Source of the DNA: Paramecium tetraurelia | Taxonomy: Eukaryota | DNA: 64,000 nt | Assembly: GCA_000165425.1 (NCBI GenBank) | Contig: CT868274.1 | Location: 186,001-250,000 of the forward strand | Direction: 5' to 3' | Part shown: positions 32,220 through 55,719 of the stretch, one piece after another | Layout: each line of letters opens with the position of its first letter | Numbering within the stretch: the first letter of the stretch is position 1 | Notes under the pieces: model-generated | What the model was told of the DNA's origin: nothing | The model's input: the letters and a program-made list of their open reading frames with translations, nothing else | Databases searched by the model: none | Program-made: the position numbers and the translations under genes

Positions 32220-33713
32220 TCATTCCATTCCGAAAACTCCTTCGAGATCATTAAGAACAATAGATCTCAAAAATTTTCGCATAAGTTCTTAGCTAGTGTA
32301 TTTTGGAAGTTCGAGCCTATTGAAGCATGTGTGAGCTATTGGAAAAGAATTGCCATTTTTATAATCAATAGGAACGATCTAGAATTTTGAATACATTCCT
32401 CTATTGGACTCAAGTTTACTGAAACCACTATATAAAATGCAATAATTAATTAAATACTTAACTGGTATCCTGTAAGAACCAGTACAATAATGTAAGAACT
32501 TTTTTAATTAATCTTGATCGAATTCTGATAATACCTTCCAAAACCACTGTATTTATTGAGAATTTTCAGCATATGGTGTTTTATATATTGTATGTTATTT
32601 CCACTCAGCTAAATCTACGACAGGTACACCGTAAAGTATCATTTCAAATTCTTCAGCTGTGAAAATATTTAAATAATCCTATGGAACATATTTATATAAA
32701 GAGTTTTAGATTTAAGCAAGCTATTTTGATATTAATTTTTCACTATAGAATTAGATGCTTCATAATAATAATAATAATAAATGATACCTTAAATCAACGA
32801 ATTCTTGTTTATTTTAGTTTGTTACCAAAATATCAGCTCCATTTTACTTTAATTCAATTATTTCATCATCTTTACATATGATAAAATATTATTATAATTG
32901 ATTTTCATCAAATTAGTTTTCAAGTAAGTATTTCCAACTCAAAAACAAACTTTTGTCATAACATTGCATGTCTTAAAATGAGATTTCTTAACCAAGCAAT
33001 TTCTTAACTAAAGGTCTATCAAATTCAACACAAATAGTCATTCTTTCAAAAAGAGCCTTTGCTATTGCTAAGCCAGCTAAATCAAAATATTGACTCTGTT
33101 TAGCAATTTTATAGGTAACATCATTAGTTTCTGTCAATGTAAAGATGTCCTTACACATTTCTTTAAAAATCAGAGTCAACCATTCTCTTAATAAACCTCC
33201 TGCATCTTAGACTTTATCGTTCAAAAATACTACTTTGACTTCCTTATAAAAATTAACACTCCTTGCTGAAACCAAAGAAGTTTATAATAAATCATTAAGA
33301 TTGACATTCAATTTGTCTGATCCTAATTGCCAAGGAATACGAAATTTTTCAAGTTAAAGATTGAACCACATTTATTTCTCAGGAAAAGATCGATTCTTAA
33401 TTTCTTGAGCACTTAAATTCTAATAAAATTGATAAAATGTTCTTACATATATCTACCCACCATTCACTTATGATTGAATTCTCTTCCATTGATTGTTTTA
33501 CTTCACCCAAATGTAATTATCTCCCAATTAATCTTAAGTTTAAGGCATTTGAAATTCAACATTATGTATTGGTTATTAAAGAAGTAGACAATGGTCTATA
33601 TGACTATTAAGAACAAAGTAGGTAGTAGAGGGACCAAACTTACGATCGCAATTTGGACATTTGGCTTCTTAACCAATTTTTGAATGCTAATTATTTGAAC
33701 TTCTGTTCCCCAT
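32220..33713 (-). CDS. HECT E3 ubiquitin ligase with N-terminal UBZ-type zinc finger
   Basis: MGNRSS start; CPNCDRKF...LNSHIDHCL; HECT DAGGLLREWL, FLHYCTGS, catalytic FPIAHTCFNRLELPKY, terminal GVFGME*. Confidence 0.93.
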
Positions 33714-33805
33714 TTTAGAACTAATAATAATCAATTTCAGAGATAAAAACTCATAAATAACAAATAAAAGATATATAATTCTATAGGTATTTATGTTCTT
33801 AATAC

Positions 33806-34655
33806 TCAAACAACAGTTTAAGTGATTTATGAATCGCACAAATCAGCTTCTTCCACAGTTTAATTCAAATTCGTAATTGGTCTTGGAGGAAAACCTGAAA
33901 TTAACTAAATTTATTTTTGAGGAGGCAAATTCATCATTCTTGACACTTAAATATATTGAAATACTTTAAAAGATGCTATTGAATGGCTGTCACTCTTGTT
34001 GTAGTATTAACTGTTAATGTAATTGTGTTTCCAGTTGATAGTCTAACCTAGATATTAGTTGTTGGTTGATTTGGGTTAATTGGTATTTAACCTTATTTAC
34101 TCAGATCAACCTTAACTTATTGTTATTATTAAACAAATTATTATTAACCCAAACTAACACCAGCTCCTCCGAATTCCACATATTTTGGTGGAGGAGGTGG
34201 GACATATTTTTCTTATGTTCTATCTTCCAATTTTACACTCAATCCTTTTTTGGCATATTATTATCGCAGCTATGTTGGTACTTAACTTTTATCATAATTA
34301 GTATCATTTACTTTTATTTTAATTCGGCAATGAATTTCTTATTTTCTGGGTCATTGATGTCTTTGAATTCTCCATCATTTATTTAAAATCCATTATTCCA
34401 TAATGTTATTTTGCACCACTCTTTTGGATCCTCCTCTCCATCAGGGCGAGAGCCTCCTTGCTTTCTATATACATTTAATAGAATAATACGCTTTATTGAT
34501 CAATTCATCAAAATCTGGAGGATTTTCTATTGAGAGTCCACTTAGAAATTTAATTTAAAAACATACCTCTTTTCACCTCCGGCATAAGAATTACTGGTTT
34601 TCTTTTGCTTTTCATCTTTCTCATTTTTCTTTAAATCATCTAAAGTTCTAAACAT
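33806..34655 (-). CDS. p47/Shp1-like SEP-UBX cofactor of p97/Cdc48
   Basis: SYAGGEKSGL motif, SEP ITLWNNGFQINDGEF...DPENKKFI, SHP box FGGAGVSLG, UBX SGFPPRPI. Confidence 0.9.
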
Positions 34656-36059: not shown

Positions 36060-37119
36060 TCAAATTTAGATGGCTTATTTTTGGAACACATTTTAAGCCT
36101 TGTTGACATCGCCAACAGTGAATAAGTTTTACAGGTTGCTAACATCAACAGACTAGAATGATATTAGAAGATTATCATACTTATTGTTATTCACTGAGAA
36201 CTGAATCGTCTACTACAAGACTATAATTGTCATAATACTTCAGAATCTATTAGACTTTGTTTACTTTCTCTCCTCCAGTCAAAACTGTGTTGTAGCCTCT
36301 TTCCAATCCTCCAACGACTATGATATTAGAAAACCTTAGACTTACCGATGCTGAAGTTGGTTACAGTTTAAGGATCTCCTGACACTATTACATGTTTGGA
36401 TCCCTGCACTTTGTCACTCAATTTTGCTAAGTCCTAGTAAGTGTAGGTTTAGAGTTATCCATTTCTCAATTGAGCTGTGACTGGTCCTGTAACAGTTGGG
36501 AGAGAAAGGCGATTGAAGTTCTTGGAGGCGTAAACCAATGATTCCTAGGGGCTTCAATAGTTTAATACTCTGAATTTATAGGTGCCTGGATATGAGTAGA
36601 ATCCAGTATGAATTAACCATTTCAAATTAGTAAATTTACTACTCTTCAGACTTTCTCCTGAGTGAGCTTGGGACAGATTAATTTATAATAGATACTCTAT
36701 GTGGTTTCTGGGACGAGGTTTTTAAGGATTTCAATGAACTTGGTATCTCCGACTAGTTGATTTGGTGAAAACACGATTCCTTTGGGGTTGACAATACTAA
36801 TAGTCTTTTCAATTTCATTTCGATCATCGGATCTGAAGGGTACTGTAATTACTCCAGCTTTGGCTGCTCCAGCAAATGTAGTGGCAGCTTCACTTGTGTT
36901 GGATCTACCAAGCAAGAGCAATAGTTTGTCCCCTTGTTTCCAACCTTATTCAATCAATCCATATGCGAATGCACTTGAATGTGTCTCTCAATAACAACTA
37001 TTGTATACATCAAATTCGCCGAAAGTCCAGGTGAGATTTTAATTCTCAAATCTGAACCCATTCTTAAGTGGATTTTATTTTGCTAAGGTTGAGAATCCTT
37101 GATAAATAAATCGTAGCAT
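36060..37119 (-). CDS. Truncated acyl-CoA synthetase (AMP-binding)-like protein with a mitochondrial-type presequence
   Basis: MLRFIYQGFSTLAK start; TWTFGEFD..HSSAFAYGLIEQGWKQGDKLLLLL...AAKAGVITVP matches the ANL-family N-terminus; no intact (S/T)SG(S/T)TGxPKG P-loop seen. Confidence 0.7.
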
Positions 37120-37153
37120 TTTTAATAAATAATTTAAATATATATAAATATAA

Positions 37154-38277
37154 ATGTTTCTTCTTAATTGGTTTGGAGGTAATAGCAATTAGAGTGGAAA
37201 GAACAAGAAAAAGAAGAAGAAGTAAAATGTGGTGTAGAATCTCAACAAGACTTTGATAAATCCAATGAAAGAAATCAAATTATTTGGACATTCAAAGATG
37301 GGATATGGTCCCAAAAAGACTGAATGTCAAGATTCTTATTGTACTATGGAAAGATTTACTGAAGATTGTTATTTTTTCGCAGGTTTAACTTCATTTTTAT
37401 AATAAGTGTATGATGGTCACGGTTCCTCAGGCAAAGAAGCATCCTAGGCAGCCAATGATTATATTTAAACTTTCCTCGAGAAAAACCCAAAGAGAATCAA
37501 AGCATTATAGAATGATAAACAAAGAGAGAGTTTTTTGAAGAGTGCTTTTAAAAATGCTGAAGCTAAACTAAGATCATCTGGTATAGATTACAGTAATTCT
37601 GGAACATGTGCAATATCAATATTTGTAGTTAAGAATATGTGTTATATTGCCAATCTGGGTGATTCTAGGGCAGTACTATTTAGATAAACTGCAAAAGAGA
37701 AACTGGCCATTGAATTATCCTATGATCATAAACCAACAAGACCAGATGAGAAGGAGAGAATCATAAGATGTGGGGGTAAAATCGAAAGGCTGATTCATGA
37801 TGGTTAGCCAGTTGGACCATATCGTATTTGGGCAGACGATGAAGGGCCAGGAATTGCCATGACTAGAACGTATTGAAATTCAAATTATGTATAGATTGGG
37901 AGATTTGCAAGCTAAGAAGATTGGTTTGATTTCCGAACCAGAAGTCTAACATATTGAATTAACAAAATAAGACAAATTCATGGTAATTGGATCGGATGGT
38001 GTTTGGGATGTGATGAGTAGTGCAGAAGTCTGTGGATTTGTTTTAAAACATGAGCCTAAGGAGAGTGTGGCTGAAGCTATTGTAAATGTTGATATTTATA
38101 TAGGTTACTGAATGTAGATCCAGATGGGATGAAATGAACAAGTAAAAGAAGACAAATTCTAAGATTGGAGATTTACCATACCTGAAATTCGGTTGTGATG
38201 ATATTACTGCTGTAATTGCTTATTTCACATTTATTGATGAATTGGAAGACAACTATTTCCAATAACAGAGATATTGA
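37154..38277 (+). CDS. Protein phosphatase 2C
   Basis: CQDS, VYDGHG, SGTCA, ANLGDSRA, DHKP, GIAMTRTLGD, GSDGVWD, GCDDITA; three short introns. Confidence 0.95.
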
Positions 38278-38334
38278 ATCATAAATATAAGAAAATAATA
38301 TTTTATGATTTATATTTTTTGATAAATATTGATA

Positions 38335-41300
38335 TCATTTCAAAGCCAATCTGACTTAAGGGATTCCCTTGATAATCTCTTAACTCTCCTAATTCAATGT
38401 GAAATTGATAGTCAAATCAACATATTTCTAATAAAATTAATAGTATATCATACCTGTATTTCTAAAACTTTAATAATTGGTTGGTCCAAGAAGTGCTTTT
38501 TCTCATCTGGCTTTTTAGCATACATGATCTCCATGTACACAGGTTAAGCCTTCAAGAAAACATCTCTTGGATGCAAATCATATTATTAATTCAGAATTTC
38601 AAATAATTATCTGAAAGTAGTTGACTTTGTAATTTCATGTGCCCATATATCCCATAATGTAACTGTGACTTTTTCATTGATTTTCTTCTTTGGTACTAAC
38701 CCTGGCTCAGTCAATTTCACAAAAGGAATTGCTAAATTGACAAAGGCGTTTTTCATATCTGAAATCTAGACATTCTTCAAGGTCTTAATCAACTCAATTG
38801 TCTATAGGCCAGCAACAACAGCAGTAGTAGTAGCCAAAGCAGGTACAATACGTCCAGCTTTAATTTTCACAGTCAGCCAATCCATAGATTCTAATTTATA
38901 ATTTGCAGCCCTTAGATTGCCGAAATGAATGAATGAAGTCGATGTGTCCATTTTAATCGTTATCCTTTTCAAATTCATCAGATGCTAAAGTGATGGGTAA
39001 TAAGGATTTAAATTATTTGAATAACAGTTATGTTTCTTCTTAAGTGCTTTGGGCTTGAGTAGTCTCATTCTCTTCAGGTTCTTCTTTTTATCCTTGCTCT
39101 TTAACCTTATCAGAAATAGACTAAAATAATTATCAAACTCATAAATACCTTCTTCTTCTCTTCGCTTGGTTGCCATTCAGGGAAAGTGATAAGATTGGCT
39201 TACTTAGCTACTTATTGTCTATAAGCTTTAGTTCTCCAATCTTTATCAGTTTCGAGACCGAACATTTTGGCTCTGAGGAAAGCAAAGGTTGATACAAATT
39301 ATTGATGAATTTCATTTTCAGGATCAAATTAAATAGCCTTGGGAGGTCGTTTAGGCATAGTCCAAAATAGATTGCCATCCTTAGTCTTAGCATCTTCTGG
39401 ATATGTATACATCAATTATTTAATGTCATTAACAAAGTATTTCTAGAATTTCCCTCTTGCCCACTTAAGACAATCTTCTAAAGAATTTGGTTTGTTCTTC
39501 AACAATTTGATGCCTTCTCTCAAAGGCTTATTGTCTTCTAGACTGGGCAAGTAATCATCTGCCATCATTTTTATTAATTGCTTTGGTCTTGCTGAAAAAT
39601 GTTTACCAAACTTATCCTTTGCAAACTCAACGCAATGGAAAGTCTCTTCTGGGAACATCTTTAGTGTGCAATATGGAATTTCTCCTTCTTCGACAGGATC
39701 ATTAGAGCTACCATATGATTCAGTTTAAAATGGAATGATGCATTGTACATGACCTTTTGGTCCAAGAGTACCTGATTCTAAAAGTGGCTTGCGAGCATTT
39801 ACACATCGTTTGTCGACATATCTTCTAGCAGCTACATTGTCAAGAGCATTAGCAATAATGTCTTAGTCTTCAAAGAATTGATCTGTGTATATGTGTTCTG
39901 TTGAATCATGAACCTTATCAAGTCTGGCTATGATGTGATCTCTCAAATATGGGTTCATTTAAATAACAGCAGCAGCAGCTGTCTAAGACTTTGGTTTTCT
40001 TAAATGTTTCTCCCTGAATAAGAATTACCTATTTAGATTACTGACCTCGATGTGATCAGGATCAGTTATTGTGATAGATCCCTTCACTCCTAAGTTAAGC
40101 ATAGCAAAATTCTTGAGTAGTTCACAACCTATTGCACCACATCCAACCATGAATATTTTAGATTTCTCTAATTTTTCAGCAATTTCTGTACCCAAGAATC
40201 TACTTAAAGACCTTTCACTTATTTTGACATCCTTGGATATCTCTTTTTGTAACACTTCAGTGCAATCCACATAAAATAGTTGTTAAACTGGAGTAAACTT
40301 ATTTGTTATTCCCTTAATAGCCTCTTGTGACACGAATCCTCCAAGATAAGCAGACAAAGGTGAAAATTCTCCTTAAACAGAGTAATGTTTGAATATGGAC
40401 TCGAAATCCTAATCTTTGGTTTACTTATTGTTATAAAGATTATGAAGATGTTCAGTATTTTGCAATTTGATAAAATCGTATTCTGACATATTTGGATCAT
40501 AAATTGGCTTATCAATGAATTCTTAATTGTAGGGTTGGAATGATAATTCAACAGGTACTTTAACCAATTTAATAGTTCCATTTCGAATGTATTTTTGAAT
40601 ATCCATTCTAATTGTATCTCCAAGACTGATTTACTAATTACTTTAACCTTTTAAATGGTTTTGTTAATTGAAATTCCATTTGAGTCTACCATTCCTTCAA
40701 TATTATCAATCATTACAATATCATTATCCTAAAATTCATGTTTACCTGTGATTTCAAAGTGCAACTTATTTTCCCCTTTATCAGTAACTGATTTAACAAT
40801 ATAATCAACAGTTTGTTCCCCATTCTTATCCTCAACTATGAATGATTACCCAAAGTCATTGAATACTCTTCCGAAGACTCCATCAACTGAACTTATAATT
40901 AATTTCACCTTATTTTAACGACATAATGTAGATAATTTGAATAATACATCATTTGGATATGTAGCACAGATTACTACAATGCTGTATTTAGTGAGATCGA
41001 TATTAAGGAGTTCTGAGGTTTCATAATTTACTCTAACGTATGAATTGAGCTATTGCAATTTTTCCCAACTTACTTCAGCCCTGTTTTTGCCAATATCTTT
41101 TTCTTCAATGAAAAATTAACCATTAAGATCATATTAAGTGCATTTCTATTGATCATGAATAGTTAACATTTTGACTCCTGATAATACTATGTTTTTGGCT
41201 ACTTCAATACCCAAGGCTCCAATGCCAGATACCAAAACACAACTATTTGCCTATTTCTTCACTGCATCCATACCCATAGCACCAATGTATCTACTCCATC

Positions 41301-41385
41301 TATCTAAGACATTTTCATCATTTGCTTCGAATTCCTTCTATTGAATCTTTGTGTATGTAACATCTACTTCATCTAAATTGGCCAT
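38335..41385 (-). other. Ubiquitin-activating E1 module (IAD-FCCH-AAD-SCCH-UFD) of the giant gene
   Basis: [91 protein letters not shown], catalytic [11 protein letters not shown] (Cys codon 39668-39670), [25 protein letters not shown]. Confidence 0.97.
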
Positions 41386-44300
41386 TCCCTCTTTTACATT
41401 TTTAACTTTAGGTTGTTTCTTGACGTGAAGTCCTTAGTACCCTGGATCCTTCTAAATCAGCAGCAGAAGGTGGCTAAATCTTATTCAATTCTTCCTCTAA
41501 TTCTTTAACAGCCTCTGACAACTTCTTATGATATGCTTTCTTGCTCTTTTTGAATTCACTGCACCAACTGGAATTGTGATCATTTAGTAACCCAGTATAT
41601 ACTGCTTCTTTGGTATCTGCAAGTTCAACCCACTTATTGCATTCCTCCAAGATTTCCTATTTCTTAAGATAGAAGTGTCTCCTAATAATAGTTTCAAATC
41701 CTTTTGGTGGATCTCTAATCTAGTCTATCATAGCATATTTAATGTTGCAATATCTGACAATATTAGAATATCCTTCATTTTTCTTTTCACCTTCATCTGT
41801 GTTTGCTTCCTATTCAAAGCCTGGTTCATTGAAATACACCTCTTCACTCATAATAATAGCTTGAGTGGACACTAAAACTTAAAGGAGAGTGGAGATTTTT
41901 GGATCCCAATTTTCAGATGCATTTCCTCTCCATGTACCTAAGAGTGACAAACATACTTTTCCACAACTATACAAATTAGGATTGAATCTGACTTTTCCAT
42001 TTCCTGTAGTAGATAAATTCATTTTAGGGGGAGCATTCGGGTATGAATCATCAGCATAAATATCAAATAGAAAGGCACCATGTGCATAAGGAGTTCCTTT
42101 TGCACCCATAACAAGTGCCTTCATCACATCTACACGTTCTTTGTCAGCTCTTACAAATATGGCATTAGTGTGTTCAATTGGTAAGGATGTTGACATATCT
42201 GCAAATTCTTAGGCTAATCTTACGATCTTATCTTGATTTATCTAAGTAGAAATGTTTCCTGAATAGTGATGCTTATATCTGCCACCCACCTTCATATCAA
42301 TATAGCTGAATCTCAAATCTGACAACAAGGTTCTGTATGCTTCAGGTAGATTTTTGGATAGAATCTCTGCGATCAACTCATTTGCTAATTCTTTCTATTT
42401 CTTGAGTTGTTCAGTCTCATCCTCTTCATTGCTACTACTACCACTATCATTCATCTTATTGATGCAATTTTCCATTCGTTTATGAGTATCTATAATCATT
42501 TTGGCAATCTCAAATGAGTGTTCTTCCTCTTCATTCTTCTTTCTATTATTTTGGACGCAATTCATAAAGATTCTGGATGTGTCAGCCAATGCACTTAACA
42601 ATTCAAATAATGATTATGTTTAAGGAGGATAATACTATTCTGGAATCTTTAAGAAAACACTGGCCAATACTTTGTGTTGTGACATGGATTAAACTATCTT
42701 CAGATACTTACAATACAACTCGAATTCCTTTGATATTTCCAAAAGTGAACCACTTCTGAATGCACTTTCTAACAGAGGCAATAATGCACTTTCAAACAAT
42801 GTATTCTTTAATTTATGTAATAGTTCTTCACTTGGATGCCAATGTTAGAAATCAAAGAATGACTCTACTATACCCAGTAATCCAATTAATTGTTATGACT
42901 TTTAGGTTTTCTTCTCCACATATTCTATCGTATTCCATTTCTAATTTTACCCAGTATTATCACTTGCATATCCTACTCCTCTCTTCTACTTTGTTGATTT
43001 CTGCAATGTGTTATTTTTCTAAGGTGATTCTTAAACCACTTATTCCTCAACCTTATTTCTAAATTCTCTCTTAGTCTCCCTACTAACCAATGCTATTCTA
43101 TCTAGGATTTGCTTAATTAAATTCTATTCCAAAGCCTTTATTCTTACTTCTGGTCCACTACTAGCACTGAATACATTTACGAGGGTGGTATAAATGAACT
43201 TAACAGCATTCTGTTCCTCCTCTTCTAATTTCTTGTTATTACTTGAATCAGGAGGTCCAGCAATTAAATCAAACAATAAATTGACACATTATTGATTCTT
43301 CATGAACAAATTAAAAAAGTTAGGTAATTGACAGAATGATTGCAATTCATTTAAAAATTATAGCCAAGAATTGGCTCGTTGTTAATTCTTCCATTATCCA
43401 ATTCCTTCTCTAATTACAGATAACATAGCATTTACACCATTTAGTTCTTCAAACAAGGGGAATATTGTTAATTGTTATGGATATGTGAATGATGATGTTT
43501 TAGGGTGGATGTTATCAATGAACTCTCTTGCATTTATTACCAACTCAATAATATTTTATTAATTTGTAGGTAACTCATTCAATTTTTACTGGTTCTCAAA
43601 TATATTGCATTCCTGTTTTAATCCATATTTGTTGAATACGATCAATTGTTTCAATTCACATAATTTCAATTAACTTGGTAATTAGTAAACTGGAACAACA
43701 CTGTAATATAGGAGTGATTGATTGGTTTCATAATTAGGGAATAGTAAACTAGTAGTTTCTTATGGTATATTAATTTAAGGCAATGTCTTCTTTTACTTTT
43801 AAGGTCTGACTCCCTGAAACATAATATTCAATCTTTAAATTGTCTAGACTTCCCTAGTCTTTTAGATTAAATGATGCCAAATTGATTCTGGATGGTTCTC
43901 CTGGGACATATTCAATTTCCAAAAATACTTTATCATTATTTTAGAATGTTAAGGTTCCTTGTTCATCATATATTTCAATTTAAGCATTGATGTCAATTTC
44001 CTCATTGACAATAAGATTATTTTCATTGAAATAAAACACTTTCATCTTCCCTTGATTCCAACTGTATGTTAAATCTAATTTATCTGATTTTGTGCATTTC
44101 ACATTATGATACAAGATAATAGTTTTGTCTACATTATTGATTCTATAATTGATAACCATCATCTAAGGAGAGGAATTAAAGAATTTATCTTCCAAATGTG
44201 GTAACATGTCTGAATCTCCATCATTCTTCTAAAAAGCCACCTTATTCCAATAGGTCTCGCTTATATGAGCAAATAATTAATCTCTTTATTTAATTGTTAG

Positions 44301-47300
44301 TAATAATGATTCGAATACTAATTCATCCTGCTTTTGAGTATTGTCTATTTATTTCTAAGCAATAAACTTTGGATCCAAAATAAATTTGCCTTAATCTTCA
44401 AATTGAATCTTCAAGAAAACATAATCCTCACTGTTCAAAATTGGAACCAACAAGGATCTCACGAATTTCATATCTTTGTTTCCTTCCAATCTGCCAATAT
44501 CTCGTATCAAGGCTTCGATTATGAATTTTGCATGATACTTCTACACCATGTAGCTGATGAATTTGGCTGCCAATTCTATAGTTTTATCATCGAATTGTTT
44601 CAAGATGGTTTTGCATGAGGGTTCTTCGATTAATGAATTATAGAGAGGGAGAAGGTATTTGAGTAGATGATCAGCAATCTTCTTATTCGTCGATAGAGTA
44701 TAAAAGAATTAGATGACGTAGTTCAATTCAAATTTACCAAAAATTGAATCCAACTGATTGATAATCCAATCAATGCTTACTCTATTTCCCAAAGCTAATG
44801 GTCCAAGCACTTCAAAGAAGTATGGTTAGGTTCTACTCTTATCCAAAGTAAACTACAATATCTATTCCACTTCTTCAAAATCTATTCATAAGGATGTGGG
44901 AGATAAGTGATGGTTACTATCAGTTTGATTAGCAAATGTCTGGCATGTTTGTTATGCAACAATTAGAACAATTCAATCAGATGTATGATATCATTTTTGC
45001 TGATATTTAGTGAAAGTTCCCTTTATTTCAATTTGCTCTTTTGCAATAACAGAACATTGCAATAGGATTCAATGAAATGCTAAGCCAATTTTTCATACCA
45101 TAATAGATCTTACTGCTGATGATTGTTGATCTGTAGAGCCAGCAATTTCTGAAATAGATGGTTGTGCAATTTCAAGAACCTTTCATGAACATGTTCTCCT
45201 TCCAAATATTATCTAACTCAGTAATTTACTATGTGATTACTCAGGGTATTCCATCAATTTGACTACTAACCAATCTCCGACCTCGTGATTATATTTAGCA
45301 ATTGCCAATATCAAAGGACTCAATTGAAATGAATAAGAATTGAGTGCATTCATGAACTTGTTGATATTGTTTTGGAGTTGTTCTAATACGATGGAATCAT
45401 TGGCCAATTGTTGCAAAGTCTTTTTGGTAATTGGGTTTACAGAACTTGGATAGAATATCGATAGCCGTCTTCTCTTATAATGTATAGATGAAATCAACTT
45501 TTTATCTACTAGAAGCATAACCCAAAACTGAAATAAAACTGATGCCTAAGCACAGCTTTTTAATAGCTTTGGATACATCCAATTGTTCTACATATTGTTA
45601 TCTCATTCTAAAGCTGATGAATTTGACAGATTAACCAGGAGGCAATTGCTGCTTATTCATGAGTTGAGAATTGTAACAAAATACTTTGACTTGGTATTGT
45701 GAATAATATTCGTCATTAATTAATTGCATCTCAGCAATTGGATATAGTTCCTCCAATGATTTTCCTACTTCTAATAGGACACTACTGGGAGTGCCTAAAT
45801 ATTTGTCAGCAAAATCAGCAGTGAATGTTTGAATACCCAATCTGATATTTTTGATTTCGATTTCATTATCCAACTAGAATACCATTTAATATTCACTTCT
45901 CATTCCCTCATGGGAGAGTGATTAGAGCTAATCTACTCTTCGCTCCTTTCTTGTGCAATGGCCAATCCTAATTGGATATATTTTGTCCTGGCAAATTGAA
46001 AACTTTCATCTTATTGCCGAACTCCTCCTCCAAAAACTAGACTTGTGTGATTTGTTTCTCCTTGATGATCTTATTTATTAGGTAATGATAGATGTCTGAT
46101 TGGAATTGTTATGCAACATCATCTGAAATTAAATACTTATCAAATTGTTATTGGATCACTTCCAAAATCTGAGATGTGTATGTGAAAGCAGTGTATGAAG
46201 TGATCTAACTATTCTCATATTGATTAACTATCACATCGTCAATGTAATATTGCTATTGGAATATTTACTGTAACATGTATTATTTGCATGGCAATAATTC
46301 AAATAATTAATCCAATGAATCGCTCACTTATTTGAGTAATTTTCCAGCATAGCTATGCAATTTGTTCCCAGAATAAGAATTCAAGCAGTACCATTCAAAT
46401 AAACGATTTAAGTCTGGACTCTCACTTAGTTGTGCTAGTGTTTATTCACTTTGCAATAGTAAATAGATCATTGATTAACAGAGTTCCAATTATTCGATCA
46501 ATCGACTATCAGCATTGATGATTCCATCCATTCCTCCTAGATAAGGTAGATACGATCCTATATATTTGAGTAATATGTTGACATTATTCAAATAGATCTG
46601 TTATACCTCTTAGGAGAATACTATGAAGATATGCTTGATGTCATTTTAGCTTAAATGAGGCAATAAGGCTTCTATTATTTAAGAGCATGTCTGATTTTAT
46701 TGCACTTATTGTTATGCCAAATTCAAGGTGAATTATAGCAATTCATTCATCAATAATTTCTATTTGCATCCTAAGTAAGACTGGATTACTCTGTGATAGA
46801 TTTGTAATTCATTCTACAATTAAGGAGTTATCATCAATATCACCTTTAGTACTTTATTCCAAATTATATATTTCTCTGACTTCTCTAATAGGATAATTAA
46901 TCTATTTATTGTATCTGGATAACAAATTTGGATATGTTATCTTTGCAAGAAGTCCTCAAAGTCAGCTAATTGTTTATTATTGCCTCTGGTCTTTAATTTA
47001 TTTACCTTCTTAACACTTCTTGTCAGAAAGTCGAATAATAAGAGCAAATTATCGATCGTTAATTTTTCTACGTTGTTTTTTATGTAGATTTAACAGAAGT
47101 ATATTGAGGTATTTTTGAAATGTAAATCAAACTATCCTTCTCAATTTATAAAATGTTATTAATTTGATCACTCAATAAGAGTGTGGCTGCCCAGTCTGTA
47201 TATCTACTTTCCAATTATTTGGGTTAGAACAGAAGGTCTAACAAAGTTTTGAATTTCTCTGGGTACTGCATTCCTTTTGAAAATAATTCTGTTAAGACGT

Positions 47301-50300
47301 TTTCATTCAATGAATTCTTAATTTAAAGGGTACTGCATTTTTGTAATGCATTTTACAATAAATTCAATCTAAATTTACTATCATTGATTAGAAATTCAAG
47401 AATAAATCCTAACATCCTTTCATTTTCTGGATTCCCATCTTCTGTTTATTTTATTTATGGCAATCTTTAAAGTTGAGTTACTAGTGCATCATACAGAATG
47501 TCATCATTCAATTCAATTAGTTTCTACAGTGATTCCAATATGGGTATTGGTAACTAATGCAATAACTTTTTCTTTAGACTGTTTTCACTTGTAAATTATT
47601 CTATTATCAATTAATTCCATTGTTCCTCAGGTATTTACATTTTAACCTTCTTTTGAATAAATTACAAAGCTATATCAGTAATTCCTTTCAAATCTCCTAG
47701 TGATATGATGAGATGGATGAATTCTAATGCGTCTGGTACTCTGCCAGAGATGGCAATCAGCATTCTCATTAAAAGAGATGAGAAGACTGTCAAGAAATTG
47801 GAATTGTTTTCGTAGTTTCTTGGGGGGGCTACTTTCAAAAATTCAAGTTGAGTTTATTCAATAAGACTCTGAAGATGACTAGTTTGTAATTTACACTTCT
47901 CCTTCAATTGCATTTCTGATTACAATTTGTATATTGCTTGTTCTAAATAATCAGCATTTCTCCTCAATGATTTAGTTGACATCACTATGTAATGGTCAGT
48001 CAAATCAGTCTTTTTAATAACATTGTATGAGTCCATGAGTATAGATTTATCTGACTAATACACATAGTAGAGGGTTTCTCCTATTGATAAGGTAGTCTTA
48101 TATCTAAAATCTTCTGTGATATCTAGTGGACACAATTCAGCATTTAAAAGAGACCCGTAGAATTCTGGAATGACAGTCAAGTAATTCTATGGAATCTACA
48201 ATTAAGCTGCTTATTTGGAATAATAATTATCACTTCCCAAAGTTAATTGCACTAATAATTTACGTGCTCTAACTCCATTAAGTCCAATGTGAAAACAATT
48301 GTAATTATGATAATTGGCACATTTATGAACATAATCTGTGAATTGTACAAAGGTCCATTCATCATAAACTTGATCCAACACCAAATTGTCTACCCAAACT
48401 TAGACTCTAAATTTGACTGAGTTTGATGTCTATTAAAATCTTAAAGACAATTTCTCAATCTCAAATTCCCCAAGAAGATTGACTTCAAATCTTCTAATTT
48501 ATTATTTATTTGACAATTGCATAATTAGAATCTAAGACAGAGGGTCTTTTTAGCATATTAAAGATTTCTAATTGCCAGTTTATTCAACTGAGATTTCATC
48601 AATTTCTTAGATTTGTACTTATCCTTGAGGTCCTCCATATTTAGTAGAAAATAAGAACATGTCTTTATGTTACATACTTTTCAACTTTTGTAATGCAAAC
48701 AACAGAGATTTCATAGCAATATCTATGATTTCTTGTGGTTTAAATTTGGCTGTATATGTTATTAATCCCAAAAAGTACTCTAAGCCACTTTCTGTTAAAA
48801 CTACTTTTTCAATCTTGTTAAATATCTGTTAAGCCACCTACAACAATATATCATGAAATTCATCGTGTTGTTGGAGTTGTCTGAAGAATTCTGTGACTTA
48901 TTCATTTACATCCTAGGATAACACATTTCCAAGGATGAATTTAGATAGGTTAATAACTTCTAACACTTTCTTGGATTCTTTCTTCATGAATAAATTAAGA
49001 ACAGTCAAAGCACCTGGTTTTTTTTGGTATACTTATTCGACTAGACTATCTAATTGATTGATTTATAAATTGTTGTATTTCTTACCAGTCACAGTCACCT
49101 TTAATAATTTATATTGTGAATCATCATGTGGTTTAATAGTGAAGTCTCCTGAATAAACAGTGTCAAATTCAATTATACCATTACTTGGATATCCATTCAT
49201 TCCTTGATATTTACATTGAACAGCCAATTTCTCAGGTAAATCAATTCTTTTCCTAAGTTAGTTTAACAATTGGCATTCTTAGATTGCTCCAACAGTTGAA
49301 TGCTCACTTTAGGTCTTAGGTATTTCTTTTCCGAAAGCAGCAAACCCTTTGATTTCAATGGAGTTAGTCTAAAAATGAGCTGTATGATCATGAGGTGTTT
49401 TTCTAAAATTGGTTGGTTTAAGCATGATATATTTGCATGGTCTTATAACTTCCAATTGACAGAATGCTTCTTTGGATTCTGCTTCAAATTCAAAGTATCC
49501 AACTGGTTCATTTGCATGTAGACTTTAATGAGTTGATTTCCACTTTTCATATTGTTGTTTGTCAAAGTTATCAAATTCTGAAGTGTCATTCAACTCATGT
49601 TCTTCTTTTGATATAAAGATCAATCCCATTCCAATGGGGAATCCTCTGAAAACATTGGTGACCTCACTTTTAATTATGACATGATCCACAAGCATAGCCT
49701 CATCAAATTGGCTTCGGAATATAAATTAGGTCTTAGGATAGTTACTAGAGAAGGGTTTATTACTATCAAAGAGCATTTAAGTAACAAATGTTTAATCATT
49801 AAAGGAGGCTCCTTTAAAGGAATGGACAGTTAAAGGTAATTTTTAAGGATCACTAACAGTCAATGGACTATTCATCAATAGGATTTGTTTTGGTTCCTCA
49901 ATGGGTCCTTCAAATACAGCCTTAATGTGGATGTGAGTGAAATTATCTCCTATATGAATTCCCTATATATGGATATCATCCGTAACTGTTTAGAAGATCT
50001 GCACTTCTTCACTTTGAATGATGTTATTCTTTAGGATTTCAGAATTGTCTTCAATTTACTTGTGTTGAGTGTTACTCTCATACCAGATGATATTATCTTT
50101 AATGTAAGCATTTGAAATGGGTTCTTAAATTTCAGAGACATTCAATTGAGAGTCAATGATGAAATTTTTTGATTGACTATAAATTAGGCATTTAGTTTTG
50201 GAAATGACTAGATCATAATTGACTCCAATGAATATTTACTTCTAAAATTCAATTTTGGAGTTTTGAGTGATCTCATAAATGCTTATAGCTTGATCACCAA

Positions 50301-52662
50301 TCAAGAAGACATAGAGTCTATTATTCCAAATGGCACTCTCAATGGTCTTAATATCAAATTCTGCTTAGATTGCCTTGTGATCAGCCTTAATCATCTCCAA
50401 TCTTTTGCAATGTTTACTATACAGAGGAGCCAGAGTCTCAACTATTTATCTACTTGTTTCTGATTGCAACAATAATGAGTAATCCTTATTTTTACTCCAG
50501 CAATTTGTTAATACACAATAATAGCCATCGTCATTGATAAAAAATTGATCCAAATACTTTTATGAATATGATATGAATTTAATAGAGAGTACATTTTTAT
50601 TATGTATACTGGCAACTAGAACTGGGAACATGGTGTTATTGCTATTCCAATGGATAACAGTCACATAATCAATAGCACTTTCTGTAATTTTATCTTTTAA
50701 ATCCTAACTGATCTCTTCATTCTCATCGACTTCAACCAAATCTTATTGAATTTACAATTATTATTTGATAACAAATTACTCTATCTGTTCATCTGGTTTT
50801 TGAGCATTACAAGCCTCACAATTTTGATTGGTCTCCTTATTAACCAAAGTGCAAATACTGCATTGCCATTCTCCACTGGTGCTCACAATGTCAAGTGCTT
50901 TATCGAAATTGTTATTAGTTTGAATAAGAGCCTCTTTACAAGCTGATTCCTCGAAATCCATTGCAACTAACTTCTCAAGCATTGCTTAATCATATAATGG
51001 TAGTTGTTCAGTTTCGCCAGTAATATAGTTTTCCAATATTTTATATATGTGACTTGGTGTTTCTTCTGATTGAACATCAATTTTCTTCTTGTTTTTCTGA
51101 TAGGGTCCCAATTGTCTCAAATCTACATCAATGACTTTAAAGAGTTCAGCTTCACCGTTGTAAATAGATATTGAATCTTGATATCTCAATGAGAAGTAGC
51201 GATCACTTTTGCTTAGGATTCTTTCACCCTAAGCCTGTATTTCACTTCGCAATATTAACTTGGAATGTTTGGTTCCATTGTTATTGATTTCATCATCGCA
51301 ATATGCATATTTGACTCCTTAAACCTGGTTATAAGTATTTTCCATATTCAACAACATTGAATGGATTTTCTGTTGCTGGATGATCTGCGAATGTTAACAA
51401 TCTCATCTTTGCAGACTCTATGCTTCTAACCTCTTCAAATTATTCTATCAATTAAACAAGTATTCTCTCTGCTATTCTGCATTGTTCTATAGAATATTTG
51501 TATTAAAATTCATCCTTTTTTTCTTCCTGAACAATCTCCTCATTTATTGGCAACATCTACGTTATTTCCCTGCAATAATTAATCATTCTCCTTTCTCTTA
51601 GGGTTTGCTCTCGAATTTCTCCTTCAACTTCCTCACATGATGTTTTAAATATTGTCTTATCCTTTTAAGTTTCTTTGATGCTTCCTCGTCCAAAATTAAA
51701 TATACTATCTCATTGTCCTCCTGATAATTGCACATCACCAACTTCATCTTTATTAGTACCTCTAATTCTGCCTTGGGAATTTGTTAGCCTACCAATGGAC
51801 AATTTCGAACAGACACTAATCGATCTTGCAATTGGTGAATTTCATTTCTATCTATATCATATTATCGATACTTATTCATCGTGAAGGAGGCATTCGAATG
51901 CTACATTTACTAACTCTAAAGCTAGACTTGTTCTAATTGCTCTACTACACTGCGATCCTCATACTTCATTGTCAAATGCACCGAATTCCCAAATTGCGAT
52001 AGTCTAACACAAGGGTACCAAGGACCTGAAATCAGAGTGCCCTTTGGTATGCCTTTGTTAGTGCTCAGATTGCCATTCAAGTAGAATTACAGTGATTGCT
52101 CGTTGAAATTAAGAAGCACACCCACCACTCTCTGCGTTGTCGTTTTAAATTCGAATAGGTGTCCCTCAAAATTTTCGCTTGGAGATTACTATTTGGATAT
52201 GCCAATCTGCAATTAGGACTACGCCTTACTTTCACTCCTTCTGTATTAAAAGGGCATACGATTTCCCAATAATGAACGCCCTCGCTGAAGCATATATTCG
52301 CTATTGCTAGACCACTGGAGTCCTTTGCTGGATTAAGCTGCTAAATTGTTGTGCCTTAAAGCGATGCCACTGTATGTGGTGTTAAATGTGAAAAGAACAT
52401 AAATTAAATAATTCCCCTGATACTTTCTGAACAGGTATTTAGATTAATGTTCAAGAATGAAATACACTTATTTATCTATATCATTTTTTATATCCTAACT
52501 CAACATCCCAATCCAAGACTCTCCCTTCTTTTGTACCATACCAAAGAATGACTTTAAATTTAATTATTCATTCTGAATAAGGGGAATTCTATTTATTAAA
52601 TTATAGCCTTATGTATATTATAATAAAATGCTTCTATTTGAGTATTGTGAACTAACCATCAT
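38335..52662 (-). CDS. Giant multidomain ubiquitin enzyme: SPRY-UBA-RanBP2 ZnF-scaffold-BIRC6/BRUCE-type E2-UBA6-like E1 fusion (about 4,600-4,700 aa; several apparent 1-nt frameshifts; start approximate)
   Basis: Uninterrupted coding-like DNA with no AT-only intergenic spacer over 14.3 kb; domains listed separately below; TGA at 38335-38337 after the UFD-like tail KGIPQVRLALK. Confidence 0.75.
41640..42990 (-). other. BIRC6/BRUCE-type UBC (E2) domain with its conserved upstream helical region
   Basis: KRGVGYASD...[95 protein letters not shown] (Cys codon 41951-41953), [19 protein letters not shown]. Confidence 0.93.
50790..50990 (-). other. UBA domain followed by a RanBP2/NZF-type zinc finger within the giant gene
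   Basis: [32 protein letters not shown] then [25 protein letters not shown], which carries a TL at the NZF ubiquitin-binding positions. Confidence 0.88.
51960..52340 (-). other. SPRY/B30.2-like domain near the N-terminus of the giant gene
   Basis: [46 protein letters not shown]. Confidence 0.85.
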
Positions 52663-52688
52663 TCATTAAATTAAATAATTTTTAAAAT

Positions 52689-53247
52689 ATGTCATCAGAT
52701 TCAGGATCGCATAAAAAAGAGGAGGCCAATCGAATTTATGTGACAGGATACTCTGCTAAAGAATCTGAAATGGAAATCAAGAACGCATTTGCTAGACATG
52801 GCGAAATTCAAGAGTTTTCTTGGAAAGGGCGATTTTGTTTCATCGTAAGACATGGACCGTTTGGCATTTAGGGTACAGGCTTATGCCAAGCCTGAGGACG
52901 CATCTGATGCAGTTAGATTAATGAATATGCAAGACTTCAACGGGAGAAATCTAATTGTCGAGTTGGCACGAGCGAAGAAAAAAGATGGTGCATGCTATTA
53001 ATGTGGGAAATAGGGGCATTTGTATTCATTCCTATCATTCTTTTTAGTGCTCGCAATTGTCGTTAGAATCGACGCTCCTACTCTGACTCCAGGTATAAGA
53101 AATTGTGACATTAGGCGCCATTCTAAAAAGAAAAAAAAACATCCAAAGCATCGATCTTCTAGCTCTTCCTCCAGTAGTGAAAAGAAAAAGTCAAAGAAAA
53201 AAAGGAGAAAGAGTTCCTCGAGTTCTCATTCCCGATCAAGTGATTGA
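52689..53247 (+). CDS. SR-type splicing factor: RRM, CCHC zinc knuckle and K/S/R-rich tail (SRSF7/RSZ-like)
   Basis: RIYVTG, GRFCFIAY (RNP1), FNGRNLIVELAR, CYQCGKQGHFARNC, tail RSSSSSSSSEKKKSKKKRRKSSSSSHSRSSD; three introns. Confidence 0.88.
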
Positions 53248-53293
53248 TAATCAAATATTCAAATATATTAATAGTAAATTTATAATATAAATC

Positions 53294-55719
53294 TCACTCC
53301 TAAAACCTTTGATTTGTGATATGTTATAAAATTGTGGTCATCGTTCGATCCTCATTCCCTCCCTTTAAGTCCTTCTTGAATGTTGGCATCTTAGATAGAT
53401 TTCGTTTTATATTCTGTTGACTCACTTCATTGTCTCTGATGAACTTCCTCTTATCCACTTTAATAATTTACATGAAATCTTACAATCAATCACTCCAAAG
53501 CATTTCTCATTATGCATCAACAAATTGCTTTATATCATGAATGTCTCCAATACTTTGTGTCCAAAAGTAACAAATATTCTAACAGATTCCTCTGCACAAT
53601 AATTGTTGATCTTTTATGCTATTACATCACTCTCCTATCTCACAAATGTCTTAATTTCTGTTTACATTACTCTCGTCTTTAAGAACATCTCATTCAAATT
53701 AACAGTCTTAAAACAAGATGCCTTTGCTGCACTACTTACTCCATTTTCTTTGCATTGTGGAGATAATGGTTCTTAACAAAGTAGAGTACGCTTTGGCTTT
53801 TGATTATTAATGAAGAACTAAAAGCAATTATCAGGTAAAAATGGATCCAGTGATTAAACATGAACAGAAAAGTTCCATAACATTGTCTACTAATTAATTC
53901 TATTTATTTCTAATTTTGACTTCATCACATTATGCTATCTGTTTTTGGAATCTATCTTTGTACCATCTTTAATAATAGAATTAATTAAATACCTGGACAA
54001 ACAAGTGCAAAGTCTAATTAAAAGTTATTCTTATTTGGAACATATATCAATATATGATATTGATTGATAAGACTATAATAGTCTGGAATCATAGGAATAT
54101 TGAGTAACTACCCTGTAGAATTAGCAAGCACATCAAAATCATATGATACTTACAAGAACCCTTTTCTTTATGCATGAACTCTCACTTATTTAAACATCAA
54201 TCCTGGACAACTAAATTACCCTTAGTCATTGGTCATACCAATAAGTGGTTCTTGATCTGTTTAATCAGATTAAAATATTTCTAGTCTGCAATTCTCAATA
54301 TCTTTGTGTTGTCCACCTCTTAAGAGAATATTATATGCTCTAAATTACAAGGTAGTTTCAACACAACTAACCAAGTCAAATTCTATTTTCACATCAGTAT
54401 TCCCCTGTAAAAATACTGTTCTCTTTTAAGAAAAGCAATCTTTTTTACTCACATCAATGACATATTCTTATTTGTCTCTTCCGTAAAATACAAATGCTTA
54501 TTCATTGCTGTCAAAAGTCAATGTCTCAGTAATATTCTTAGTCACATTGACAGTAGCATCTTCTGGAGCTTTAACAATACATTTGATAACATCATTTCTT
54601 TCTACTCTGGTTGAAACATAAACAGTATCTGTATTATCATCGAGGAGCTCATCAACATTTAGCTGAGTTTTCATAGTTTGAATACAATTTCCAGTAATTT
54701 CTATTTCATATGCATTGACTTATTAAACTAAATCTATAAATTTGGCTTCATCAAAACAACTAAGTGGAACTGTTTAACTGAACAATTTCACAGTAAACTT
54801 TTTCTCTGGTGATTAGGCTCTCTGTTTTTATCCTGACAAATCAATTTAAGAGATGTTGGTTTGAGTCATCCATGCTTAGGATTTAGTAGGTGAAAAATAA
54901 ACTCTTACTGATTTCTCCATATCTCTTATATTTTCTGTGCTCTTGTAAATATCTAATTTAGAAGCACTTTTTTAAGCACTGCCTTATTAACAAAACGAAG
55001 TTCTTATGACAATTTATTTTGTAGGAGTTTATGCTGATTATAATGTAGGAGCTTCTCTCTAACGGACAGTCACTTAAAGTCCCTCTAAAATATTTCTTTA
55101 CTATCCTTCTTCACTAACAGGAACCACATTTTTGATTGGACAATCAACATTGACTGTTAAATTAAATTTTCTAAGATGGAGCCATACCAAATCGGCTATC
55201 AATTTAGGTGAGATTTGCTCTTTTGAATATTACCTAGAATACAACACAACTGAATGCACTTCAGGTTGATAGAGTTGGATTTATAAGTAGTGATCAGGAT
55301 GACTTATTTGTTATCGGAATACTTTTATGAATGGATACCTATTAAATAGACATTAAAATTTTACTTTCTATTGATTGTTTATTTTATTTCATCAAGCAGA
55401 TCTTAAAATGCTTCCTTGGTTTCATCTACACCTGTACTCTTAAATTTTGGATTATAACAACTTTAAATGGATACTCCTATTTGTTATGACTTAAGTTAAT
55501 CAAACTCAAGAAAATTCACAAAGGAGGTCTTCTCTTGAATACTAGAGATCATATTTCTTAAAAATTCCTTGTATTATAAAGTAATTTTAGTGGTCATTGC
55601 TGGCATCATATTGTCATTAAAAAAACTAAATCTCTACTAATAAGGTACCTCACTTTGGATTTGAACTTAAATCTATTTGGAGACTGCTAAGAATTAATGC
55701 TGCTAGTTGTTTAGAACAT
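53294..55719 (-). CDS. Hypothetical protein, possibly with beta-sandwich (carboxypeptidase-regulatory/transthyretin-like) domains
   Basis: Long open frame with ciliate code; segment IENCRLEI...GMTNDQGQFSC...VRVHAQRKGFLQ resembles CarboxypepD_reg-like folds; function unknown. Confidence 0.65.

Follow-up and report, generated by a model that had tools for sequence, protein, structure and literature searches.

The window analysed here, a stretch of 64,000 nucleotides (nt) of Paramecium tetraurelia DNA (contig CT868274.1, positions 186,001 to 250,000), carries on its minus strand, at 38335..52400, a single expressed gene, whose product is a BIRC6-like ubiquitin-conjugating enzyme (E2) fused to a ubiquitin-activating enzyme (E1) of its own. 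The coding region runs from an ATG at 52400 to a TGA at 38337-38335, and minus-strand RNA is found along the locus. The sequence as written switches frame at 13 places; once three introns and 15 extra letters are dropped, a corrected open reading frame (ORF) of 4,657 codons is obtained, here called the read-through model. Long frames are only seen with genetic code 6, where TAA and TAG stand for glutamine; G+C content is 25-34%. TGA is the sole stop codon in this code, and no in-frame TGA is found throughout the corrected ORF. The original prediction, made from the sequence alone, had described 14.3 kb of continuous minus-strand coding DNA at 38335..52662: strand and single gene are retained, as is the exact position of the stop (38335-38337), while the continuity gives way to 13 frame switches and three tiny introns, and the 5' end was set 262 nt too far upstream. 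Between 52401 and 52662 the frame is open by chance, as happens easily in a code with one stop codon.

Three intact, annotated single-gene relatives are colinear with the model from end to end. Residues 1-4657 align with 1-4625 of P0328, from P. pentaurelia (4,625 residues, 89.6% identity), and with 1-4650 of P0330, from P. sonneborni (4,650 residues, 88.4% identity); residues 1-4616 align with 1-4604 of P0334, the product of a second P. tetraurelia gene (4,620 residues, 88.6% identity). Identity falls below one quarter in just three short stretches of the model, two of which lie at the two sites where extra letters could be placed only approximately (see below). The whole-length alignment to these relatives also sets the start codon at 52400.

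Transcription was followed over 37400-53400, by comparing the window with raw reads of two stranded oligo-dT runs (X21 and X22, 2026) and with contigs from two further data sets (X1 and X3, 2013 and 2019). The latter derive from RNA, since a 26-nt GT..AG stretch at 38428-38453 is missing from both contig sets. This stretch is intron 3 (38428..38453, minus strand; GTATGA...TTAG), left out at the whole depth of both sets (99 and 18.7). Intron 2 (39121..39148, minus strand; 28 nt, GTA...TAG, A+T-rich) is not visible among the RNA rows listed; its removal yields a gap-free local alignment to the homolog P0006, and the public gene model has the same intron. Intron 1 (52207..52229, minus strand; 23 nt, GTAAG...GCAG) is placed, like the start codon, by the relatives, because positions beyond 48 kb are covered by 0-2 RNA reads. 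On the 3' side, an X1 contig breaks off at 38288 with 20 T in a loose run (plus strand), the poly(A) tail of a minus-strand RNA; the addition site (38288..38289, minus strand) lies about 46 nt past the stop.

The public model of this gene (P0001; CAK77506.1, XP_001444903.1, GSPATT00012991001, UniRef A0D389) has 2,601 residues. Over 528 residues taken from the E1 part, the window matches this P. tetraurelia macronuclear protein with 99% identity, and therefore derives from the 2006 assembly of that species or from a copy of it. GSPATT00012991001 starts mid-gene and crosses the frame breaks by means of odd predicted introns, including an atypical 34-nt GTC...AAG intron bridging the junction between the E2 and E1 parts. 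It is truncated and mis-spliced because of assembly errors, and should give way to the model of 4,657 residues.

The nature of these errors emerges from the RNA comparison. Among the differences listed, one or two window letters are missing from the RNA at 11 places; at all of them it is the window that holds the extra letter, in 10 of the 11 within a run of 2-5 identical letters. In both contig sets the gap involves the entire depth at every listed place, while in raw reads its share goes from 3/10 (41428, X22) to 7/7 (40608, X22). From the 5' end of the gene, a single extra letter is found in an A run of the coding strand at 51592 (gap in 1/1 X21 and 4/4 X22 reads), in a GGG run at 51568 (X22, 4/8), in a TTT run at 51321 (seen in the contigs only; raw reads 0/0 and 0/1), in an AAAAA run at 45421 (2/2 and 3/5) and in a TTT run at 45204 (0/1 and 1/2). 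Two extra letters lie in a TTTT run at 44877..44878 (2/3 and 0/1). Single letters follow in a GGG run at 43812 (0/0 and 2/3), at 41428, where a T falls in the E2-E1 junction (67.4 of a depth of 67.4 in X1, 31.6 of 31.6 in X3; raw reads 5/16 in X21 and 3/10 in X22), at 40608, the only one not in a run (4/4 and 7/7), in an AAAAA run at 40592 (8/14 and 15/26) and in a TTT run at 38923 (15/21 and 23/31). The X1 contig spanning 43462-48048 features eight gap letters, five of which are among those listed; there must therefore be three further extra letters, assigned to two inferred sites. Two of them are placed, within about 8 nt, at 47104..47111 and one, within about 7 nt, at 45908..45914, by combining the X1 gap count, frame logic and best fit to P0328.

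The 13 frame breaks are most likely insertion errors of one or two letters in the 2006 Sanger assembly, rather than mutations. In the published polishing of that assembly, 10,339 insertions of 1-2 nt were removed, versus 929 deletions filled, by means of DNA reads, first of the same DNA sample used for the Sanger assembly (PMC3464196). Paramecium-type introns were considered as an alternative source of the frame switches: none convincing is found in the overlaps between frames, where the RNA shows single-letter differences instead, and no joint within the locus is present among the RNA joints listed for X21, X22, X1 and X3. Ribosomal frameshifting of the Euplotes kind is rejected, because the RNA itself is without the letters.

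Thirteen frame breaks in 14 kb, together with a paralog 88.6% identical in the same species, might also be expected of a decaying duplicate with real frameshifts, where the intact P0334 does the work. Such a pseudogene is highly improbable: the transcripts lack the extra letters, every change is an insertion, dropping them leaves not one in-frame TGA, although TGA is the only stop, and the insertion pattern fits the error class described for the 2006 assembly in PMC3464196. Another possibility follows from the window having been compared with RNA only: the letters might be real in the DNA and be removed from the RNA, by site-specific deletion of single nucleotides or by polymerase slippage, as all differences go in one direction and most fall within runs. 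Runs of 2-5 letters, however, are too short for known slippage; moreover, the P. tetraurelia paralog P0334, from the same assembly, has an intact frame, and more than 10,000 insertions of this sort were taken out by polishing with DNA reads (PMC3464196). We give this explanation almost no credit.

A cluster of differences of another type is present at 49949-50347, where in both X1 and X3 contigs at least seven positions have C in the window and T in the RNA (plus strand). Two of the seven listed C/T differences are also found in 2/2 raw reads of X21 and X22, and the X1 contig has two gap letters in this region, though the window frame is intact there. All going in one direction, these differences may stem from substitutions in the assembly, from a different strain or from a contig derived from a paralog.

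The junction between the E2 and E1 parts is the point on which the fusion depends. The linker (41323..41623, minus strand; residues ~3582-3681) is open throughout when the extra T at 41428 is left out, and the three intact relatives read the same residues there, the junction peptide being unchanged save for V/I, V/L, R/K and E/D changes. It spans about 100 residues, from the last residue aligned with BIRC6 to the first aligned with E1, rather than the ~85 codons first estimated. In the sequence as written, the E2 frame stops at a TGA at 41372-41374, and an ATG in the E1 frame, at 41383-41385, lies 11 nt upstream of that stop. This arrangement, along with the atypical intron by which the public model joins the two parts, could be taken to indicate two adjacent genes, a giant E2 ending at the TGA and an E1 starting at the ATG, united by annotation only. 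Yet the RNA contigs lack the T at 41428, and the two parts therefore share one frame: the X1 contig at 40730-42241, reaching from the E2 domain (UBC) into the first E1 module, has one gap and is otherwise identical to the window. X1 contigs reach a depth of 67.4 on the side of the E1, compared with 61.8 in the stretch 43462-48048. X21 and X22 reads have a single orientation from 38.4 to 52.3 kb; their depth declines gradually along the gene, being about 20-28 reads near its 3' end and about 1 near its 5' end, and does not change abruptly at 41.4 kb. The only poly(A) end listed, in RNA reads and contigs, is that at 38288, and none is listed at the junction. The three intact relatives read straight through, and fusion is the rule across the family described below. 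Two separate genes are therefore very hard to credit; the evidence supports a single gene and a single transcription unit, continuous across the junction. Observations that would have contradicted the fusion did not turn up: mapping of RNA over junction and locus revealed no separate transcripts, the gene does not look like a pseudogene, and the relatives are not always split, since they are fused too.

Sequences other than that of the window are also transcribed around the junction. The region of 41428 is covered by a second haplotype or paralog sequence, with several nearby differences. One X3 contig, with a depth of 9.8 out of 31.6, differs from the window at six positions within 100 nt (41343-41441), and probably represents an expressed paralog, similar to the P0334 gene. 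More generally, X21 and X22 differ from the window at single positions in 15-65% of reads (mostly 30-50%) within 39112-42167, 37420-38115 and 52724-53193, while the X1 and X3 contigs lack most of these variants; they could stem from paralog reads (88% identity) mapped to this locus, from a culture that was mixed or heterozygous, or from the presence of a second haplotype.

The domain content was established by scanning eleven minus-strand ORF pieces, translated with code 6, against Pfam. The order found is SPRY-like, UBA, RanBP2/NZF, UQ_con, ThiF, FCCH, ThiF, SCCH and UFD, in agreement with the original reading (SPRY, UBA, NZF, UBC, E1, in this order), with SPRY and NZF falling below the Pfam cut-offs; the two motifs quoted then for the catalytic sites are present in the translations. 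The SPRY-like domain (51958..52328, minus strand; residues ~25-140, with HYWE at 41-44) is split by intron 1; its match to PF00622 (E 1.2e-4) scores 22.6 bits, under the cut-off of 26.3, and is weak in P0328 too (17.3 bits). The UBA domain (50890..51000, minus strand; residues ~459-495) matches PF00627 (E 3.9e-10, 39.8 bits), and is found at the same place in P0334 and P0328. The RanBP2/NZF zinc finger (50788..50874, minus strand; residues ~501-529) reaches 26.8 bits against a PF00641 cut-off of 27, and 32 bits in P0328; its phmmer matches in the PDB are the fingers of Nup153, RanBP2 and HOIL-1, with a best E of 0.0019.

The ~2,500 residues between the finger and UBC, first described as an uncharacterised scaffold, turn out to include a discoidin/DOC-like (galactose-binding-like) beta-sandwich at 49249..49881 (minus strand; residues 832-1042), recognized by predicted structure and structural matches. 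The AlphaFold2 (AF2) model, obtained from an alignment of 25 rows, has a mean predicted local distance difference test (pLDDT) score of 87.6; its best structural matches are the discoidin domain of muskelin (E 4e-7), galactose oxidase, CBM32, APC10 and the DOC domains of HECTD3, HERC2 and CUL7. Discoidin/DOC domains are common as substrate-recognition modules of ubiquitin ligases (E3). An exhaustive search with 1,200 residues of the N-terminal scaffold found 112 proteins at E<=1e-3, 30 at 1e-10 and 3 at 1e-30, nearly all matching either the discoidin-like domain or the UBA/zinc-finger stretch, and most of the 112 falling on query 470-690. The beta-sandwich is thus the sole widely conserved part of the N-terminal scaffold besides that stretch; because matches are nearly confined to these two regions, the remainder evolves too fast to be traced. 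About 1,900 residues of fast-evolving scaffold separate the beta-sandwich from the BIRC6-like region. A phmmer search of the PDB found no match for the scaffold at residues ~2852-3354, and only the zinc-finger matches at ~359-1789.

The E2 module belongs to a BIRC6-homologous region (41624..43468, minus strand; residues ~2967-3581), which consists of a helical part and of UBC with its N- and C-terminal extensions, and where the homology shared by the family begins. UBC matches UQ_con with 69.5 bits. The UBC piece aligns with human BIRC6 4524-4777 (E 1.7e-71, 244 bits), and scores 133.5 bits with UBE2O and 107.6 bits with UBE2Z. The catalytic residue is Cys3472 (codon 41951..41953, minus strand), aligned with the Cys of the BIRC6 motif KVCLS and invariant in 12 of 12 fused proteins. 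A profile built from these 12 proteins extends the match to BIRC6 4162-4782 (444 bits), that is to about 360 residues upstream of UBC; a single member, P0139, also matches BIRC6 4287-4811, while the window's own piece upstream of UBC (residues ~2852-3354) finds no BIRC6 match alone. The BIR domain (PF00653) is not found in the eleven pieces of the window, nor in the intact relatives P0334 and P0328, and the same holds for the Pfam BIRC6 domain (PF12356), which nearly all animal BIRC6 rows list.

The C-terminal part (38338..41322, minus strand; residues 3682-4657) is a complete canonical E1, made up of IAD, FCCH, AAD, SCCH and UFD, as established by Pfam and by alignment, and colinear with P0006 to the last residues; it aligns with residues 11-1007 of a 1,016-residue UBA6. 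The ATP-binding loop GCGAIGCE of the active adenylation domain is encoded at 40121..40144 (minus strand; residues 4074-4081), its G, G, A, G, C and E being invariant in 12/12 fused proteins. The catalytic Cys4232 (codon 39668..39670, minus strand) aligns with the catalytic-loop Cys of yeast Uba1, and is likewise invariant. All 12 proteins keep both catalytic Cys residues and the GxGxxGCE loop, as well as NLxRQFLFR and the aspartate of NALDN. The UFD, the usual E2-docking module (38338..38738, minus strand), is split by intron 3; it matches PF09358 (E 1.1e-5) and aligns to the C-terminus of P0006. As to the type of E1, a family profile gives 1053 bits with human UBA6 (through the UFD) versus 965 with human UBA1, while the single sequence ties yeast Uba1 (376.4 bits) with UBA6 (375.2 bits). 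Within the best 120 matches, the named stand-alone proteins found by the AAD-SCCH half are UBA6 or generic E1s, none being named UBA1; for the N-terminal E1 half the best named stand-alone matches are UBA1.

The fusion is not limited to Paramecium. A search with the E1 part, restricted to longer proteins, yielded 2,818 matches at E<=1e-20; 81 of the best 120 carry UQ_con in addition to E1 domains. In all fused proteins that were re-scanned (14/14) UBC is N-terminal to E1. Twelve of them have an FCCH match, and in 10 of these the starts of UBC and FCCH are 486-495 residues apart, close to the ~491 of the Paramecium protein. A second search used the UBC of a 4,621-residue member against proteins of 2,541-8,087 residues, and yielded 187 matches at E<=1e-20. 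A set of 127 proteins was examined, including 118 newly listed by the UBC search, eight earlier fused proteins and the window's model: 75 of these giant proteins with a BIRC6-type UBC carry an E1, while in the other 52, without E1, UBC lies at the very C-terminus.

Named fused members come from Paramecium (P. tetraurelia, with two genes, P. pentaurelia, P. sonneborni and P. octaurelia), Tetrahymena (T. thermophila Q22N18, named "ubiquitin-activating enzyme E1", 7,545 residues; T. utriculariae and T. malaccensis), Ichthyophthirius multifiliis (EGR33396, "ubiquitin-like modifier activating enzyme 6, putative"), Moneuplotes crassus (5,403 residues) and Platyophrya macrostoma, as well as from a Picozoa single-cell genome, in a cluster at 90% identity with metagenome proteins of 4,621 and 5,319 residues. 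The 4,621-residue protein of this cluster features ankyrin repeats and an APC10/DOC match ahead of UBC and E1. Most other fused members are environmental proteins. The suspicion that the architecture might already be catalogued proved right: besides Q22N18, which brings the same architecture to Tetrahymena, databases hold entries of 4,620-5,132 residues from several Paramecium species. It is known, in other words, as a database object under generic names; the fusion is real, ancient and widespread. Among the non-fused proteins, Salpingoeca helianthica (a choanoflagellate) and Echinamoeba exundans (an amoebozoan) have the same UBC type and, in precomputed Pfam annotation, SPRY, ZZ and F5/8-type-C domains, PF00622 (SPRY) being listed for some non-fused relatives; the other non-fused group is that of animal BIRC6 proteins. 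A non-fused JGI metagenome protein, P0392 (4,253 residues), has BIR, F5/8-type-C, ZZ, SPRY and UBC in precomputed Pfam and, judging from these domains, links the accessory set of the Paramecium type with the BIR-bearing animal type.

Separate trees were built for the two modules, in both cases as quick LG+G4 trees supported by the SH-like approximate likelihood ratio test (SH-aLRT) only, with long branches flagged. In the UBC tree (127 rows, 295 columns), the 75 fused proteins and one other, P0325, lie on one side of a branch with support 98; the 35 animal BIRC6 proteins form a clade (100), across a branch of support 100 from the fused UBCs. In the E1 tree (63 rows, 1,004 columns, unrooted), the 24 fused E1s and eight proteins without UBC lie on one side of a branch with support 100; 7 of the 8 rows named UBA6, all animal, form a clade with one other row (100), and UBA1 and UBA7 make up another group, joined by Balamuthia proteins named "UBA6" (92). 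All three E1 groups converge on a single node and the tree has no root, so that the fused E1s may or may not be sister to UBA6. UBC and E1 of the Paramecium protein each fall inside the fused clades. A single clade in each tree fits one ancient fusion followed by joint evolution, so that the fused form may well have arisen once and define a large protist family.

These results refine both type assignments of the original prediction. A BIRC6-type giant E2 is borne out by the type of UBC, by the adjacent homology and by the catalytic Cys, while BIR and PF12356 are not found and the clade is a different one. A full E1 with its catalytic Cys is present; its likeness to UBA6 holds for the profile score, although in the tree the fused E1s are grouped with one another, apart from UBA6, and the N-terminal half of the Paramecium E1 finds UBA1 first.

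Some irregular members of the family were also encountered. P0325 (5,018 residues) is a giant UBC protein ending one residue after its UBC, and P0008 (1,146 residues), an E1-only protein, stands beside the fused P0006 in the E1 tree; the contigs of P0325 and P0008 are each listed as 24,801 nt, and the pair may reflect one gene divided by the annotation or a family member that is genuinely split. P0147 (P. sonneborni, 508 residues, contig of 6,785 nt), in which part of the scaffold runs into the first E1 half with no UBC between them, is probably an incomplete gene model from a short contig.

The domain architecture suggests a mechanism in which the E1 module would adenylate ubiquitin with ATP and take it on Cys4232; the UFD would then dock the tethered UBC of the same chain, or that of a partner chain in an oligomer, and ubiquitin would pass from Cys4232 to Cys3472. 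The SPRY-like and discoidin/DOC-like modules may bring in substrates, while UBA and NZF may bring in ubiquitin chains. The outcome would be ubiquitylation independent of a separate E3, as in BIRC6, by a self-charging E2/E3 that does not depend on free E1, the covalent tether standing in for the tight non-covalent pairing of BIRC6 and UBA6. Activation, transfer and ligation would thus take place in cis, insulated from the general E1, and the linker of ~100 residues is in principle long enough for UBC to reach its own E1. The presence of UBA and NZF domains suggests that the modifier is ubiquitin.

The same linker also leaves room for an E1 working in trans, as a second general E1 that, like UBA6, serves several E2s, or set free by cleavage of the linker; the fusion would then merely co-regulate or co-localise the two activities. 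All four Paramecium proteins compared have a Met 34 residues ahead of the E1 core, eight proteins without UBC fall inside the fused E1 clade, and human UBA6 charges several E2s (PMC12999496). Against this stand the single clades of fused UBCs and of fused E1s, as expected of a pair evolving as a unit, and the UBC-FCCH spacing, which stays near 490 residues in 10 of the 12 proteins where FCCH was matched; furthermore, E1-only rows may be cut gene calls, P0008 and the truncated P0325 both coming from a contig listed with 24,801 nt. An E1 acting in trans appears improbable, if less so than the alternatives discussed above.

Taken together, the results make it probable that the locus is one gene for a self-charging E2/E3 of ~4,657 residues, whose frame breaks are assembly errors and which descends from a single ancient fusion. 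Several points weigh against this conclusion. A contig over the junction is no proof of a single molecule, and no full-length read was seen; there may be an additional E1-only transcript from an internal start, or the linker may be cleaved. Start codon and intron 1 are those indicated by the relatives. The attribution of the frame breaks to the assembly is drawn from RNA, relatives and one paper, and part of the raw reads contain the extra letter, its absence being recorded in 5/16 and 3/10 reads at 41428, 8/14 and 15/26 at 40592, and 4/8 at 51568; alignment effects at read ends and near other variants could be responsible. About 13 sites in 14 kb are some seven times the genome-wide mean implied by the insertion count in PMC3464196, for which the sole explanation offered is that assembly quality may be uneven. 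As to function, the picture is deduced from sequence for the family as a whole, and the modifier could be a ubiquitin-like protein (UBL) instead of ubiquitin. A complex prediction for a family UBC region and UFD (P0006 950-1235 and 2278-2384), in which the alignment was unused, scored 0.26 against a mark of 0.34, a value that speaks neither for nor against their binding.

Other genes of the window were annotated in passing. Upstream, a divergent neighbour at 52700-53400 (plus strand) is expressed, with a 34-nt GT..AG intron at 52845-52878 (27 and 22 reads, one contig). Its translation, by eye, looks like an RRM and zinc-knuckle protein with an arginine/serine-rich tail; its ORF pieces within 52700-53400 have no Pfam match. 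The 262 nt between the region of this gene and the ATG at 52400 would hold both promoters. Downstream, a convergent gene at 37103-37873 (plus strand) encodes a well expressed PP2C phosphatase (PF00481, E 8.7e-24), and a piece of a HECT-domain E3 ligase lies at 32763-33842 (minus strand; PF00632, E 7.9e-21), 4.5 kb from the giant gene, to which any link is unsupported. The Pfam scan further identified an ABC transporter (2703-4592), a K+ channel with a cyclic-nucleotide-binding domain (10556-12937), a class II aminoacyl-tRNA synthetase (24063-25472), an ankyrin-anoctamin protein (27271-29655) and a WD40 protein (58594-59664).

In textbooks, eukaryotic E1 and E2 are separate proteins. The family described here, with at least 75 giant members, the named ones coming from five ciliate genera and a Picozoa single-cell genome, joins a BIRC6-type E2/E3 to a full E1, and is thus a Rosetta-stone record of the BIRC6-UBA6 axis; in tractable ciliates, it offers a compact system for the study of E1-E2 specificity, thioester transfer in cis and private ubiquitin supply. 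A literature search, which did not take in Burroughs et al. 2008 and 2009, found no paper describing or testing an E1 joined to a BIRC6-type E2 in any eukaryote. In a 2025 structural paper on the pair (PMC12999496), BIRC6 is described as a hybrid of E2 and E3 that receives ubiquitin from UBA6, its UBC binding the UFD of the latter tightly; that paper treats conservation among animals alone, and never uses the word "fused". It may be speculated that the fused proteins are a third ancient E1 lineage, tied to one BIRC6-type E2/E3 since a single early event and working in closed circuit, without recourse to the general E1, and that animal UBA6 and BIRC6 derive from the same unit, by fission or from an unfused precursor. 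We regard this as doubtful; if true, the exclusive pairing of E1 and E2 in human, described in work of 2019-2025, would be the relic of a once covalent link.

Among known proteins, BIRC6 is the closest to the E2 part. Both are giants of 4,600-4,900 residues, and their UBC domains match together with the extensions, the Paramecium protein having NPN instead of HPN; non-animal BIRC6-like relatives, too, carry SPRY, ZZ and discoidin domains. The two differ in that BIRC6 has the BIR and Pfam BIRC6 domains, neither found in the Paramecium protein, in that its scaffold has no sequence match to the parts searched (residues ~359-1789 and ~2852-3354), and in that the UBC of the 35 animal proteins belongs to another clade. 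In the Paramecium protein, moreover, UBC is followed by the E1, whereas in 52 of 52 non-fused giants a tail of just 1-261 residues comes after it. UBE2O is likewise a large E3-independent E2 with a related UBC (133.5 bits), clearly less similar than that of BIRC6; it has no E1 and a different scaffold. UBA6 and UBA1 share the domain set and the catalytic residues of the fused E1, which, unlike them, is covalently preceded by an E2 and falls in a separate clade, nested in neither within the unrooted tree. The same logic and order, E2 N-terminal and E1 C-terminal, are displayed by bacterial Cap2, from the anti-phage system CBASS, which is ATG7-like, conjugates without an E3 and modifies a cGAS-like enzyme, as reported in PMC12355090. 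None of the PADLOC models matches the Paramecium UBC piece; in most of the listed "E1-E2" profiles the E1 match lies in the C-terminal half. Likeness between Cap2 and the Paramecium E1 is confined to the adenylation core (~120 residues, 17-37.5 bits), and on these comparisons Cap2 is an independent fusion of the same two activities.

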